A stretch of DNA of 64,000 nucleotides from a virus (lineage: Duplodnaviria > Heunggongvirae > Uroviricota > Caudoviricetes), in IMG/VR virus record IMGVR_UViG_2703718777_000015. The stretch is one strand, 5' to 3'. Both the position numbers and the translations under genes were made by a program. Under the pieces are notes generated by a model. That model did no database searches. It was not told where the DNA came from and was given only the letters and a program-made list of their open reading frames with translations. Shown piece by piece: positions 16,990-20,538 of this stretch; within the stretch, counting starts at the first letter, position 1; each line of letters begins with the position of its first letter.

Positions 16990-17691
16990 TTATTCTGATT
17001 CTCGCTCAAAAAACGAGCTAATGAGGGGAAGCCAATCCTCTGACACTTCGCGAGGCCGCGGTTTGCCGTGGAAAAAGATTATTCGGCAGTCCTTTGGTAA
17101 TGCCCCATTCCCCCTGGAGTAACGCGCGCTCGCATATTTTGAACCAGGTTCCACAACATCGGCCTTGTAACTTACAAACCATCCTGGATACAGATCCTGA
17201 AATGCTGGTGTATCATCGCCCATAACCTTCCGTAAGAACCCCTGATCACCCCAGCACTCAGTAGTGACACAACGAGCAATCCAACCTTCCGGATCTTGCC
17301 AGAATGAACTCCAGATATGTGCTTTTACACTATTTGGTATCCACAGGGCACCGCTACCACGATATTGTGGATGGTAAAAATCCCTAAGCATGGTGAAGCA
17401 GGTTGGTGGATTCTCAAGGATTGGGCGTATATCACCGGCAATAACCGTGTCCAAATCCAGATAGAACAGATCATCGGTTATATCCGGTCGGAACAACTCG
17501 ATTTTCGCCCACCAGCCACGGCACTTTTGCCACTGGTTGATCAATGGGACAACTTTGACGCCAGGTACATGTAAACGCTTCAGGTCTGTCAGGCAAATAA
17601 TTTCATAGCCTTTTGGCAGTTGATTAACCAGCCACTGCACATCGGAAGCGTTATAGTCACCACCAGAGCGAAGAACTAAAGCAATCTTCAT
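16990..17691 (-). CDS. putative glycosyltransferase-like protein (GT-A-like DxD motif)
   Basis: [13 protein letters not shown] hydrophobic-DxD pattern; weak. Confidence 0.4.
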
Positions 17692-18380
17692 GCTGCACCA
17701 TCACCTTTCACTTTCATCAATGTCAGGTTTCCGCAAAATACGGCACCAGTGTCGATATACTGCTGATTCCAGAATGTCTTCGGGCTTTTCACCGGAGTGT
17801 GACCAAAGATAAAACGATCTGCGCCCGAAATTTCGCCACCAATATCATCCATCGAATCACTGATACGCTCGCGCGCCCAGACAACGTTGAAAAGCGGCAC
17901 CTCCTTACCGAATTGGTATTCATTATCCGGATAGTCGGCATGGGCTATAACGATAGTTTCTTGCCCGGTGTTCAACTCAATGATATAGGGCAGACGCTTT
18001 ACCAGCTCCACCAGCGCCCTGGCTAATATTTCCTGATCAGTGTCCAGCATGAAGAACCATTGTCCGCCATTCATTAGCCAGTTATTCACGTTGCCATCAG
18101 GACTTAACGCATCAATCATCAGCCGCTCATGGTTCCCCATCACTGCCCTGAACCAAGGCATCTGCAATAGTTCCAGACATTCGACATTTTCAGTACCGCG
18201 ATCGATAAGGTCGCCGACCGATATCAGTAAATCCTGCGCTGGGTCAAAATCCACACGATGGAGTTCGGACATCAGTCTGGTGTAGCAACCATGCAGATCA
18301 CCAACAACCCAGATATTCCTGTATTTGGTACCGTCGATACGGTGATAAATTGTTGGTGCCATCATGTATTCTTCAGCCAT
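17688..18380 (-). CDS. Ser/Thr protein phosphatase (lambda PPase-type metallophosphoesterase)
   Basis: GDLHG, GDLIDRG, GNHE motifs. Confidence 0.85.
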
Positions 18381-18988
18381 TCTTTAAGAGTCATCTGCGG
18401 AATACCTCCCATTTTCCCGCATGAAACAACGTCAATCCGTTCACGCGCAGACTGGAATAACAAAGGCAGGTGACTTAGATTTTTTGGCGTGCCGCCGGAG
18501 TGAACGCGTGGTTCTTGTGTAGCGTCAACGCCCACCAGGGCGACATGTTTGAATCCGATATGGAAAGCCAGGTTCAGAGCACCATATGCACTATTGCCGC
18601 TGGCAATTTCATTCTCATCTTCGCAAAGTCCGAAATGTGCGGACCAGCGCCACGCCCACCACTCGGGAGAATTCGTATTTTTTGGCTCCATGCCACGTTC
18701 AGCCACACGACGGAAGCACAGAACGCCGTCTCTGACTTCACGTTCTTTAACATCGGGTAGTGCCATGCAATAACAAACACCACGGCGACGGCGGCCACGA
18801 CCAACGCGCCGCATATTGTCTGGCGATGGATCAAGTGTGAAAAAATAAGAAGCGCGGTTCAGCCAGTCGATGGCCCCATTGACCGCTATAATCGGCACTC
18901 CGCGCGGCGCAACAAAGTTTGCGGCGCTTGGGCCACTGCCGACGATAATAACGCGATCACTGCCTCTAAATTTATTCTTGGGAAACAT
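18362..18988 (-). CDS. MptE/DUF115-like Rossmann protein (paralog A)
   Basis: N-terminal IIVGSGPS...[10 protein letters not shown] as in Maf/MptE-like proteins. Confidence 0.5.
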
Positions 18989-19548
18989 TGAATTGCACTG
19001 CTCCTACTTGCATTCAAAATATGTAAATCTGCGTGTTTTTTGCGGGTATCCAGGAACTGCTGTTGCCATTTTGAAATAGACACCTGCGTTGGATTCCGTA
19101 GGGCTTGAGGGTGCGCGCCATGCCAATGAAGGCCGTTTTGCAGAGAACAGTCATAGCCGACTAATACCACTACTTCAGCCCCTGATTCAGCAGCCAGACT
19201 GATAGCCTGCGCGCCGCTATTTACCCCTTCCGCCGGTCCACAATATCGCCTGTACTCCAACGAAAATGATTTCGCCGCCGCCAGGTTGGCTGTCACTTTG
19301 CGGAATCTCCCTCCCGGTATGGTGGATCCGTATTGCTTCCACCATGACAAATCACCGGCGTATAAGGCATAAATGTCATCGAACATCTGCCAGGAATTGT
19401 TAACCGCGATGATTGAACAGCCAGTTTTTTCTATAGCAGCACAGTCCTCACGAGTGAGTGACGGACCGCTACCGACACAAAAAACAGTCCTAGTCGCCCT
19501 GCGTGGTATGTTCATTCTCAGCTGCAAATTCAGCCTCCAGGCGAGCAT
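18886..19548 (-). CDS. MptE/DUF115-like Rossmann protein (paralog B)
   Basis: FCVGSGPSL...IIAVNNSW; same architecture as paralog A; 3' end overlaps it by about 100 nt. Confidence 0.5.
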   Translation of the reverse strand: MLAWRLNLQLRMNIPRRATRTVFCVGSGPSLTREDCAAIEKTGCSIIAVNNSWQMFDDIYALYAGDLSWWKQYGSTIPGGRFRKVTANLAAAKSFSLEYRRYCGPAEGVNSGAQAISLAAESGAEVVVLVGYDCSLQNGLHWHGAHPQALRNPTQVSISKWQQQFLDTRKKHADLHILNASRSSAIQCFPRINLEAVIALLSSAVAQAPQTLLRRAECRL

Positions 19549-19711
19549 TCATTTCAGCGATTACAGGGTCCACTACAGCATCTGTTTCCTGTTCATTACG
19601 CGGCATGATCGATGCCAGCGATTCATAATTAGCCTTGGATGACACGATTATTCTCCCGATGTTAATGTGCGCTATATCAAATGGCGCATATGTACTAATT
19701 AATTTATTATT

Positions 19712-20290
19712 TTAAGCAGCATACAACCACTTGTCGCCGTTCAATACATGCTCAATAGCCTCACCCTTTTTAAGGCTTATGTATTCCAGGATGGCGGTTA
19801 TCGCTTGTTCTGCACCATACGCAAGAACGACGTAGTAACCTTCCTCTCTAAGCCTGCGCATCCAGGCGATCTGCTCTTTCGTCGGGGCTTTACCATTTGG
19901 TTCTTTAAGCTCAATTCGCATGCCGTGATAAATACCGCATGCTTTATCGAGACTCATGTCCGGATAACCTTTTTTCTGCCCTTCAGCCTTCATTTTCCCG
20001 GCGGTTGCTTTTGAACGTTTCCCTCCGTTAGGCGTTGCATGCAACAGCTCATAGATGTCAGGGTGCTTGCGTTCGAAGTAATCAAAAATGAAAACCTGCT
20101 CGAAGTGCTCGCAATTTCCGTCGCGCAGGTCTGGGTTCTTTGCAAGTGCTGCAAGTGCCTTCGCATGTGGAGAAACTTCTTTTACCGGCGCAAGCGATAA
20201 GAATGGATCCTTTTTGGTTTTTGGCCTGGACCGCCCCTTATTTCGACGCTCACTAAAAGCCTGAAACTCTTCCTCAGTAAAGCGCAACAC
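19712..20290 (-). CDS. VRR-NUC domain nuclease (PD-(D/E)xK)
   Basis: HATPNGGKRS...KGYPD...IELK motifs. Confidence 0.8.
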   Translation of the reverse strand: MLRFTEEEFQAFSERRNKGRSRPKTKKDPFLSLAPVKEVSPHAKALAALAKNPDLRDGNCEHFEQVFIFDYFERKHPDIYELLHATPNGGKRSKATAGKMKAEGQKKGYPDMSLDKACGIYHGMRIELKEPNGKAPTKEQIAWMRRLREEGYYVVLAYGAEQAITAILEYISLKKGEAIEHVLNGDKWLYAA

Positions 20291-20292
20291 AA

Positions 20293-20538
20293 TCAGTCAA
20301 ATCCTGCCGGTCGCATGCCATATTTACGCTGTTTTGCGGCCTGCTCTTCCCTGTGCCATTGCGCACACTCAGCGTCACAATAGATGCCTGATTCAATCGG
20401 TTCATTGCAGTAACGACACTTCCCTGTAAATACCTGACTCACGACCTGTGCCTGCTTTCTGATGTTATCGATGGCCATGTCTTTGAGAGCTTCTAACTGA
20501 TTCATGCTCAGCTCTGCATCATCAACACGTTCTGCCAA
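20293..20538 (-). CDS. small C4 zinc-finger protein (TraR/DksA-like)
   Basis: CRYCNEPI...CDAEC. Confidence 0.5.
   Translation of the reverse strand: MAERVDDAELSMNQLEALKDMAIDNIRKQAQVVSQVFTGKCRYCNEPIESGIYCDAECAQWHREEQAAKQRKYGMRPAGFD

Follow-up and report, generated by a model that had tools for sequence, protein, structure and literature searches.

A conserved three-gene cassette of transferase-like proteins in P1-like and other tailed phages, with a possible role in virion glycosylation

The locus and its genes

Positions 16990-20538 of a 64,000-nt stretch of viral DNA (IMG/VR record IMGVR_UViG_2703718777_000015; the window) carry a known block of seven collinear minus-strand genes, in the order pmgL, pmgM, pmgN, pmgO, pmgP, ppp and pmgQ. 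Comparison across phages indicates that three of these, pmgO, pmgP and pmgQ, form a conserved module, which may serve to glycosylate a virion protein. The window represents a P1-like phage or phage-plasmid, with 98–99% identity quoted to P1, RCS47, SJ46 and P7; the stretch 16600-20700 matched P1, RCS47 and SJ46 over its full length at 98.4-98.8% identity and P7 at 97.8%, and the gene order of the block is the same in the P1 and P7 records. All open reading frames (ORFs) listed in a preliminary description of this DNA, made from its letters alone, were recovered at the positions given there, on the minus strand.

The unit starts with pmgL (20293-20538; 81 amino acids, aa) and pmgM (19712-20290; 192 aa). 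The small acidic ORF pmgN (19490-19645; 51 aa), identified by phrog_2350 and the P1 annotation, heads a pmgN-pmgQ unit that continues with pmgO (18886-19548; 220 aa), pmgP (18362-18988; 208 aa), ppp (17688-18380; 230 aa) and pmgQ (16990-17691; 233 aa), with overlaps of 103 nt between pmgO and pmgP, 19 nt between pmgP and ppp, and 4 nt between ppp and pmgQ. The P1 record gives 'putative morphogenetic function' for every gene of the block except ppp, and the P7 record names pmgN, pmgO, pmgP and pmgQ hdmA, hdmB, hdmC and hdmD, respectively, and labels them 'head morphogenesis'. RefSeq already attaches homology-derived names to these genes ('alpha-2,3-sialyltransferase', 'norphogenetic protein', 'glycosyltransferase'), so that both the genes and such names are known.

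The annotated start of pmgO is probably too far upstream: its homologs begin ~12-20 residues further on, and the model has low confidence over its first 20 residues, so that the true start probably lies downstream of the annotated ATG. The N-terminal extension (19515-19548) overlaps pmgN, and the unconserved C-terminal tail overlaps the start of pmgP (18886-18988, 103 nt).

Three of the seven genes form a conserved module

Scanning viral contigs with a PmgQ profile yielded more than 583 loci, of which the 35 that were not near-identical to P1 were analysed. In about 25 of these 35 diverse loci, the PmgQ-like gene had a PmgO-like gene upstream of it on its own strand, adjacent in most of them. 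A lambdoid prophage of Citrobacter rodentium (L004) carries contiguous homologs of PmgO (41% identity), PmgP (57%) and PmgQ (43%) between its lysis genes and terminase, with no ppp, pmgM or pmgL, and a divergent P1-like contig of 90 kb (L053) keeps pmgL-pmgM-pmgO-pmgP-pmgQ-pmgR-pmgS and is devoid of ppp. Two other contigs have an extra GT-A-like gene, in place of ppp, in the slot that separates PmgP from PmgQ. Conversely, phage D6 carries ppp (89.6% DNA identity) among unrelated small genes and without the three transferase genes, and neither pmgL nor pmgM was present in non-P1 cassettes. Because the trio occurs without them in other genomes, we do not count ppp, pmgM and pmgL as members of the cassette: ppp is an insertion into a variable slot between pmgP and pmgQ, and pmgL and pmgM, the latter syntenic in P1-like phages only, are best described as P1-lineage neighbors.

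The two upstream members of the module can also occur in one chain. At L007:7953-9128 a protein of 376 aa (P0051) joins PmgO to PmgP and is followed by PmgQ, and further tandem PmgO::PmgP fusions were found in P0301, P0321 and P0373. From these fusions we predict that the separate PmgO and PmgP of P1 work as a heterodimer. The PmgO family is large, with 7,395 representatives at 50% identity matching at E<=1e-3 and 3,698 at E<=1e-10.

Genes lying side by side in the late region of P1 need not share a task, and the block might consist of unrelated accessory morons with no joint function. All of its genes are non-essential. As independent passengers, ppp, pmgM and pmgL fit that description, and for these three it stands. 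For pmgO, pmgP and pmgQ it is refuted: these genes lie contiguously in lambdoid, HK97-like, podovirus-like and P1-like genomes, and overlapping stop and start codons and natural fusions occur among them. As an account of the block we consider it very unlikely. The same co-occurrence pattern speaks against the opposite extreme, in which phosphatase, nuclease, Dmt, ASCH protein and Pap had been joined with the transferases into one combined pathway, since only PmgO, PmgP and PmgQ of these co-occur across phages.

Fold and family of PmgO and PmgP

PmgO carries the motif CVGSGPSL...SIIAVNNSW, to whose N-terminal part IVGSGPSA corresponds in PmgP. Pairwise BLASTP aligned the N-terminal stretch only (E 0.003), while comparison of the PmgO-family profile with the PmgP-family profile extended over 164 columns with 97.8% probability (E 7.8e-13). 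The tandem paralogs with GSGPS and IIAVN motifs noted in the preliminary description are thus real, and they are ancient paralogs that did not arise by recent duplication. Invariant or nearly so across both families are S27-G-P-S30, N110-S111-G and G131-Y-D133, and these correspond to the signature of a superfamily in which an N-terminal G-x-G-P-S loop is combined with a mid-chain Ser-Gly and a G-x-D after the central strand. Both proteins have the modified Rossmann-type fold of Maf, MptE and GT42 enzymes. Comparison with known structures gave paired values of 14.3 and 13.5 for the Maf flagellin glycosyltransferase 5mu5, 11.9 and 12.6 for the archaeal pterin pyrophosphokinase MptE (8sd5), 11.0 and 10.8 for the Campylobacter sialyltransferase 2p56, and 8-10.4 and 7-9 for thiamine pyrophosphokinases (TPK) and GT29 sialyltransferases.

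The only Pfam family matched by PmgO and PmgP was PF01973 ('MptE-like'), at 23.7 and 21.0 bits, both below the gathering threshold of 34.6 bits, a threshold that is passed by homologs of the same families (P0051, 44.6 bits; P0321, 43.6; P0301, 41.5). The proposed MptE/Maf-like affiliation holds at the level of the family, by fold and motifs. When a combined PmgO+PmgP profile was searched against PDB sequences, CstII sialyltransferases ranked first (E 0.017-0.045), followed by Maf (0.21) and MptE (0.65). The GPSL, SG and G-x-D elements of this profile aligned to N9-G-P-S12, S132 and G152-I-D154 of CstII, residues that contact the cytidine monophosphate (CMP) moiety in CstII. Invariant residues of similar spacing occur in the two proteins (D66, S111 and D133 in PmgO; D53, S133 and D155 in PmgP), and we infer, from spacing and not from an alignment, that these acidic residues and serines are equivalent to those needed in Maf.

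Other searches returned little: a single-sequence search of PDB sequences with PmgO found nothing significant, the PmgP family profile had no match in PDB, NCBIfam has no family for either protein, and a search of a viral fold library returned phage homologs and a few viral sialyltransferases only. The PmgP-like half of the fusion P0051 aligned to Escherichia coli WaaZ in a single pairwise BLASTP comparison (E 3e-4; 23% identity over 190 residues, covering both motif regions), and a faint precomputed match to PF27901 (WaaZ_KDO_III) lies on the same protein; hhalign of the PmgO- and PmgP-family profiles against WaaZ gave probabilities of only 11.4% and 13.9%. Given such profile probabilities, we do not claim membership of GT73, the WaaZ family, for PmgO or PmgP.

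Since the fold is common to pyrophosphokinases, and the sole Pfam match bears the name of one, PmgO and PmgP could be MptE/TPK-like enzymes that use ATP to activate a substrate of the hydroxymethyl or alcohol kind, such as a pterin, a sugar or a thiamine-like compound, with PmgQ using the product or acting alone. Such a function is quite unlikely, because sialyltransferases outrank MptE in the sequence-profile search, the constant partner of these proteins is a GT8 glycosyltransferase, their accessory genes encode sugar-tailoring enzymes (see below), and no pterin or thiamine pathway genes lie alongside the cassette. We thus describe PmgO, the near-universal member of the cassette, as a putative CMP-ulosonic-acid glycosyltransferase of Maf/GT42-like type, and PmgP, its distant paralog, as a second Maf/GT42-like protein by profile and fold.

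PmgQ resembles GT8 glycosyltransferases

A profile built from 45 PmgQ-family sequences matched, among PDB sequences, the Skp1 alpha-galactosyltransferase 6mw5 (E 2.1e-8), glycogenin (2e-5) and the streptococcal GT8 enzyme 5gvv (1e-4). PmgQ shows the conserved features VLRSGG, K63, D79-L-D81, G148-D-Q150 and H208-G-x-P-R-P. D79-L-D81, which aligned to the DxD of 6mw5 and of glycogenin, was invariant in all 45 sequences, and K63, D149 and H208 were invariant or nearly so. The GDQGF of the family aligned to GDQGLLN of glycogenin, and its FHGKPRP to HF-G-KPW, with the lysine replaced by arginine in P1. The motifs expected of GT8 (DxD, a conserved lysine, GDQ(G) and a C-terminal H-x-x-G-x-x-K-P-W) are thereby all represented.

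PmgQ also matched phrog_1962 ('glycosyltransferase') at E 2.5e-127. No Pfam or NCBIfam family, including Glyco_transf_8, was matched at E<=0.1, and a single-sequence search of PDB sequences returned nothing significant; as the Pfam model is unmatched, GT8 membership rests on the profile-to-PDB matches (E 2e-8). The idea of a DxD-containing glycosyltransferase-like protein is borne out. The evidence supports well the assignment of PmgQ as a GT8-like, retaining GT-A glycosyltransferase.

The cassette lies within head modules, next to sugar-tailoring genes

We counted the two nearest same-strand ORFs on each side of the cassette in 23-26 non-redundant loci. Upstream, 15 of the 46 nearest ORFs in 23 loci matched major-capsid families (Phage_capsid, 9; Phage_capsid_4, 5; Phage_cap_E, 1), and the downstream ORFs included 7 head-tail connector, 6 head-completion and 3 HK97-gp10-like matches. 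About 15 of the 23 unrelated contigs have a capsid-family gene no more than two ORFs ahead of the cassette. The usual order was terminase, portal, protease, capsid, PmgO-like, PmgQ-like, connector, and this order was also seen in Martelella and Onishia prophages and in Pseudomonas phage D3, in which the PmgO homolog orf7 follows the major head gene orf6 and the small orf6.5. Genes for sugar-tailoring enzymes are frequent companions of the cassette: its neighbors encode O-methyltransferases of the FkbM, TylF and Methyltransf_24 types, a PIG-L de-N-acetylase, a sulfotransferase and a hexapeptide acyltransferase, besides additional GT-A proteins. In one protein a PmgO-like domain is fused to a TylF-type methyltransferase.

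The second transferase is not always of the PmgQ type. D3 (L092:6394-7789, orf12 and orf13), PAJU2 (L091:5525-6917) and Eowyn (L093:4577-6071) carry instead a protein of 275-296 aa together with a methyltransferase, with no PmgQ-type GT8; this partner belongs to phrog_6804 and shows a weak hint of GT9 (E 0.069). From these gene sets the Maf-like enzyme appears to be the constant part of the system and the second transferase exchangeable. The PmgO homologs of Pseudomonas phage PAJU2 (ORF010, L091:4974-5543) and of the Klebsiella jumbo phage Eowyn (L093:3986-4558) are annotated 'structural protein'; if this label rests on virion proteomics, the PmgO-like enzyme may itself be virion-associated.

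Other arrangements were seen outside this pattern. In P0308 a PmgO-like domain is fused to Ig-like Big_1/Big_13 domains. On the chromosome of Serratia plymuthica (L003:4014-17785), PmgQ- and PmgP-like genes lie beside a lysozyme gene; the same locus has a lipoxygenase and two Big_1 (invasin-like Ig) proteins, with two separate PmgO-like genes on their flanks. HK97-like phages have an ORF of 81-101 aa between the major capsid gene and the PmgO-like gene (for example L092:4337-4624, which is D3 orf6.5, L058:7298-7549, L079:6287-6583 and L005:6654-6941); its product (phrog_7993, phrog_2616) has a folded N-terminal half and a low-complexity tail, rich in Ser, Thr, Ala and Pro, that ends in a basic cluster. 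This small protein could be a glycan acceptor or a head accessory protein. As an acceptor we retain it as a lead only, its Ser plus Thr fraction of 0.13-0.27 being modest against a background of 0.145 and no equivalent existing in P1.

A location beside the capsid gene also bears on a further explanation, by which the cassette remodels the host envelope: during lytic growth, PmgO and PmgP (WaaZ-like) and PmgQ (WaaO/WaaJ-like GT8) would modify lipid A-core while it is at the inner membrane and thereby alter the lipopolysaccharide (LPS) core that is the P1 receptor, which would spare progeny from loss on cell debris or lower superinfection. For all three enzymes, the closest characterized analogues in E. 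coli work on the LPS core: WaaZ, through the BLASTP and PF27901 matches of P0051, and the GT8 enzymes WaaO and WaaJ, which carry an alpha-glucosyltransferase annotation and are encoded in that same core locus of E. coli. P1 adsorbs to LPS core glucose, and C1-controlled promoters repress the cassette in lysogens, which would confine the effect to lytic growth. Against this stand the presence of the same cassette beside the capsid gene in phages whose hosts are unrelated and whose receptors differ (Pseudomonas phage D3 and Martelella, Onishia and Caulobacter phages), the low hhalign probabilities of both family profiles against WaaZ (11-14%) and the fact that knockouts show no adsorption or plating phenotype. 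Moreover, little of the outer membrane would be replaced by LPS made late in infection before lysis occurs. Taken together, we regard envelope remodeling as unlikely.

Transcriptional control of the block

In the P1 record, the block lies between C1 operators, with a late promoter ahead of it and pmgR as the next gene after it. Searching the window for the C1 operator consensus with <=3 mismatches returned 10 matches, against 0.4 expected by chance, and among the sites matching the consensus were three of the operators with which the block is bordered in the P1 record. Upstream, O26/Op82 (20596-20612, plus strand; 2 mismatches) lies in the divergent control region between pmgL and gene 26, beside which the late promoters LPpmgL and LP26 are annotated in P1. 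Just downstream of pmgQ, the operator search and the P1 annotation agree on OpmgRb (16923-16939, plus strand) and OpmgRa (16972-16988, minus strand), which mark a separate pmgR-pmgS promoter.

Within the block, the P1 record places a predicted promoter, PpmgN, and a C1 operator, Oppp (formerly Op83), in the minus-strand intergenic region between pmgM and pmgN (19646-19711). A promoter-like site was found at 19737-19709 on the minus strand. Unlike the other operators of the window, the Oppp/Op83 site (19689-19705) is degenerate here, with ~5 mismatches to the consensus, and it was not found at <=3 mismatches. The first convincing intrinsic terminator downstream of the block follows pmgS (15377-15406, minus strand; an 11-bp stem and a T run), and none of similar quality lies between pmgL and pmgQ. 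Simple terminator matches inside pmgP were weak and within coding sequence, and were treated as chance. By these signals the block reads as one or two transcription units, which would be derepressed with the lytic cycle. In a CRISPR interference (CRISPRi) study, targeting pmgN lowered the efficiency of plating to 1.4e-2, yet the gene is reported to be dispensable when deleted, and plating was unaffected by knock-down of pmgO, pmgP, ppp and pmgQ, which lie downstream (PMC10695390).

Genes outside the cassette and the question of DNA modification

The homologies of Ppp and PmgM are in line with the phosphatase and nuclease calls of the preliminary description. Ppp aligned to the lambda phosphatase 1g5b over its full length (residues 11-229; E 2.2e-95) and to Metallophos (PF00149) at 60.2 bits (E 4.6e-16), and is by homology an ordinary lambda-type Ser/Thr metallophosphatase. 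PmgM matched the VRR-NUC structure 4qbl (E 3.5e-17), with its catalytic motif GYPDM...RIELK aligned to GYPDL...RIEIK; it scored 21.2 bits with PF08774, just below the cut-off of 23.8, and matched phrog_5702 ('Holliday junction resolvase') at E 4.8e-27. These matches identify it as an ordinary member of the VRR-NUC (PD-(D/E)xK) nucleases, and probably as a junction-resolving enzyme. PmgL, whose sequence includes CRYCNEPIESGIYCDAEC, matched phrog_54 ('DksA-like zinc-finger protein'; E 1.7e-13) and is accordingly classed, by similarity, as a small C4 zinc-finger protein of the DksA/TraR-like kind.

Two genes elsewhere in the window were drawn into the same picture. The P1 acid phosphatase gene pap (14846-15352, minus strand) encodes a protein matching the PNK-phosphatase HAD domain PF25109 (E 2e-11) and phrog_415 ('polynucleotide kinase'; E 6e-57), which suggests that Pap may be a nucleic-acid 3'-phosphatase and not a general acid phosphatase. 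Just downstream of the dnaB-like ban, dbn (25483-26481, minus strand) encodes a protein scoring 25.1 bits with Glycos_transf_1, against a cut-off of 26.4, and named 'glycosyltransferase family 4 protein' in RefSeq; Dbn is a putative fourth P1 glycosyltransferase, unlinked to the cassette.

It had been proposed that the enzymes of the block, in concert with Dmt, Pap, the ASCH protein and Dbn, a GT-B protein, attach sugar- or phosphate-linked groups to phage DNA or protect it from restriction. Phage glycosyltransferases that hypermodify DNA exist (bioRxiv 10.1101/2023.12.21.572611), and P1 does carry Dmt and the near-threshold Dbn. Several lines of evidence point the other way. Knockouts of pmg genes left anti-restriction unchanged: 24 of 29 P1 single-gene knockouts plaqued normally and showed unchanged anti-restriction (PMC9024508), and pmgL through pmgQ are listed as non-essential in a CRISPRi table that cites this knockout study (PMC10695390). 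Neither enzymes for precursor bases nor known DNA glycosyltransferase families were found in the block with Pfam, NCBIfam and PHROG, no hydroxymethylase (hydroxymethyl-pyrimidine) or deazaguanine genes are present in the annotated RCS47 equivalent of the window, and PADLOC gives no match. In unrelated phages the cassette keeps company with head genes and not with replication or nucleotide-metabolism modules, and Ppp, PmgM and Dmt do not co-occur with it. Ordinary restriction enzymes routinely cut P1 DNA, and methylation is the only modification known on it, which also counts against DNA hypermodification. We therefore regard the DNA-hypermodification and anti-restriction proposal as very unlikely.

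A tentative model of virion glycosylation

Building on the folds, family relationships, three-gene co-occurrence, fusions and head-module position described above, we tentatively favor the view that the pmgO-pmgP-pmgQ cassette is expressed late and glycosylates a virion protein. Which donors and which acceptor it uses, and what biological benefit follows, form the proposed part of this model. That the cassette decorates virion proteins with sugars is more likely than that it modifies DNA. The cassette would be derepressed upon inactivation of C1 and boosted late along with the morphogenetic genes. PmgO and PmgP, as Maf/CstII-type enzymes that are probably paired, would transfer a CMP-activated ulosonic acid, which in E. 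coli K-12 would be CMP-Kdo (Kdo, 3-deoxy-D-manno-octulosonate), the sole CMP-activated ulosonic acid there. PmgQ, as a GT8-type retaining transferase, would add a hexose from a uridine diphosphate (UDP)-sugar. The resulting short glycan would be carried by a protein of the phage virion, with a head protein as the likeliest candidate, and would be dispensable in the laboratory. In support of the donor, Maf enzymes expressed in E. coli were reported to O-glycosylate Ser/Thr with Kdo drawn from the endogenous CMP-Kdo pool, in a reaction requiring two acidic residues and a conserved serine (bioRxiv 10.1101/2020.06.03.131540).

The identity of the acceptor is the least secure step, suggested by the head-module position and by mycobacteriophage precedent: in cluster O mycobacteriophages, three tandem glycosyltransferase genes and an O-methyltransferase are described as modifying capsid and tail tube (PMC11600133, citing Freeman 2023). 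The cassette shares with that system the co-expression of tandem glycosyltransferase genes, with or without an O-methyltransferase, with structural genes. The 'head morphogenesis' labels of P7, whatever they rest on, agree with a virion acceptor.

Several observations weigh against virion glycosylation. A glycan on P1 goes unmentioned in two cryo-electron microscopy studies (one at 3.2 A) and in a virion proteome from LC-MS/MS, none of which looked for glycans. The knockouts have no plaque phenotype from which a function could be approached. In sequence, CstII and WaaZ are linked to the proteins only marginally (E 0.017; hhalign 11-14%), and P1 lacks the small protein with a Ser/Thr-rich tail that HK97-like phages carry between the capsid gene and the cassette. 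A position in a late structural operon is, furthermore, also typical of morons with unrelated functions.

A broader proposition is less likely than this model: that a head-module cassette, made of a Maf-like enzyme and a GT8-like or other transferase, O-glycosylates virions with a Kdo-type ulosonic acid and a hexose, sometimes methylated or sulfated, in P1 and in thousands of tailed phages of Gram-negative hosts. Carriers of such a head-module cassette include Pseudomonas phages D3 and PAJU2, Caulobacter phiCbK-like phages and Klebsiella jumbo phages.

Novelty and implications

In the literature searched, we found no paper on the function of the locus, no described function of these families and no capsid glycosylation in Gram-negative phages; the suggestion of a sugar-transfer capability outside any described pathway is supported. 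Relative to that literature, three points appear to be new, namely that the three genes form a conserved mobile cassette, that the Maf-like pair consists of paralogs able to occur as a fusion, and that the cassette occurs with sugar-tailoring partners inside head modules in thousands of phages of Gram-negative hosts. The identities of the genes are unsurprising in themselves; the hypothesis built on them is testable and potentially broad.

P1 is among the most used phages in genetics, and these genes nevertheless keep the placeholder 'putative morphogenetic function'. With P1 knockouts at hand, an assignment made in this phage would carry over to the thousands of proteins whose present name is 'norphogenetic protein' or 'alpha-2,3-sialyltransferase', and the present analysis already removes the misleading idea of the block as a DNA-hypermodification pathway. 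If the proposed glycosylation is true, phage glycosylation would extend from mycobacteriophages to Gram-negative phages, with the first virion system there found in a 70-year-old model phage; CMP-Kdo would gain a use outside LPS and capsule synthesis; and the way in which antibodies, lectins and mucus see therapeutic phages and resistance-carrying phage-plasmids could be altered.

Comparison with known systems

Ppp and PmgM differ in nothing notable from the lambda phosphatase NinI (1g5b) and the phage VRR-NUC nuclease (4qbl), respectively, and these systems are unrelated to the cassette. The Maf flagellin nonulosonic-acid glycosyltransferases (Maf_flag10/PF01973, 5mu5) are proteins of ~630 aa with flagellin-binding N- and C-terminal domains, whereas PmgO and PmgP, at ~200 aa and with sub-threshold PF01973 scores, comprise the catalytic domain only. 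Their genes also differ in setting, those of Maf lying in flagellar glycosylation islands and those of PmgO and PmgP in phage structural modules with a GT8 partner. To the Campylobacter sialyltransferases CstI and CstII (CAZy GT42) the match of PmgO and PmgP is marginal in E-value, and no equivalent of the CstII catalytic His188 and Tyr156/162 was located in the phage proteins, which have conserved histidines of their own (HWHGxH in PmgO, H173 in PmgP). Moreover, E. coli K-12 has no CMP-sialic acid. The Kdo III transferase WaaZ of E. coli, a protein of 283 aa that acts on lipid A-core and presumably belongs to CAZy GT73, takes its sugar from CMP-Kdo, and no other CMP-sugar is available in the P1 host.

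With GT8 enzymes (glycogenin, 6mw5, 5gvv), PmgQ shares a profile match at E 2e-8 to 1e-4 and aligned lysine, DxD, GDQ and C-terminal motifs, and differs in being shorter (233 aa), in its N-terminal nucleotide-binding motif VLRSGG, in belonging to a phage-specific clade (phrog_1962) and in having no Glyco_transf_8 match. Glycogenin and the Skp1 enzyme glycosylate proteins. A parallel in organization is the glycosylation of mycobacteriophage virions in actinobacterial hosts, in which tandem glycosyltransferase genes, three in cluster O, and an O-methyltransferase are likewise non-essential and are proposed to act on capsid and tail tube subunits (PMC11600133). The putative glycosylation of the P1 type has as its own feature that the genes lie inside the head module, directly after the capsid gene.

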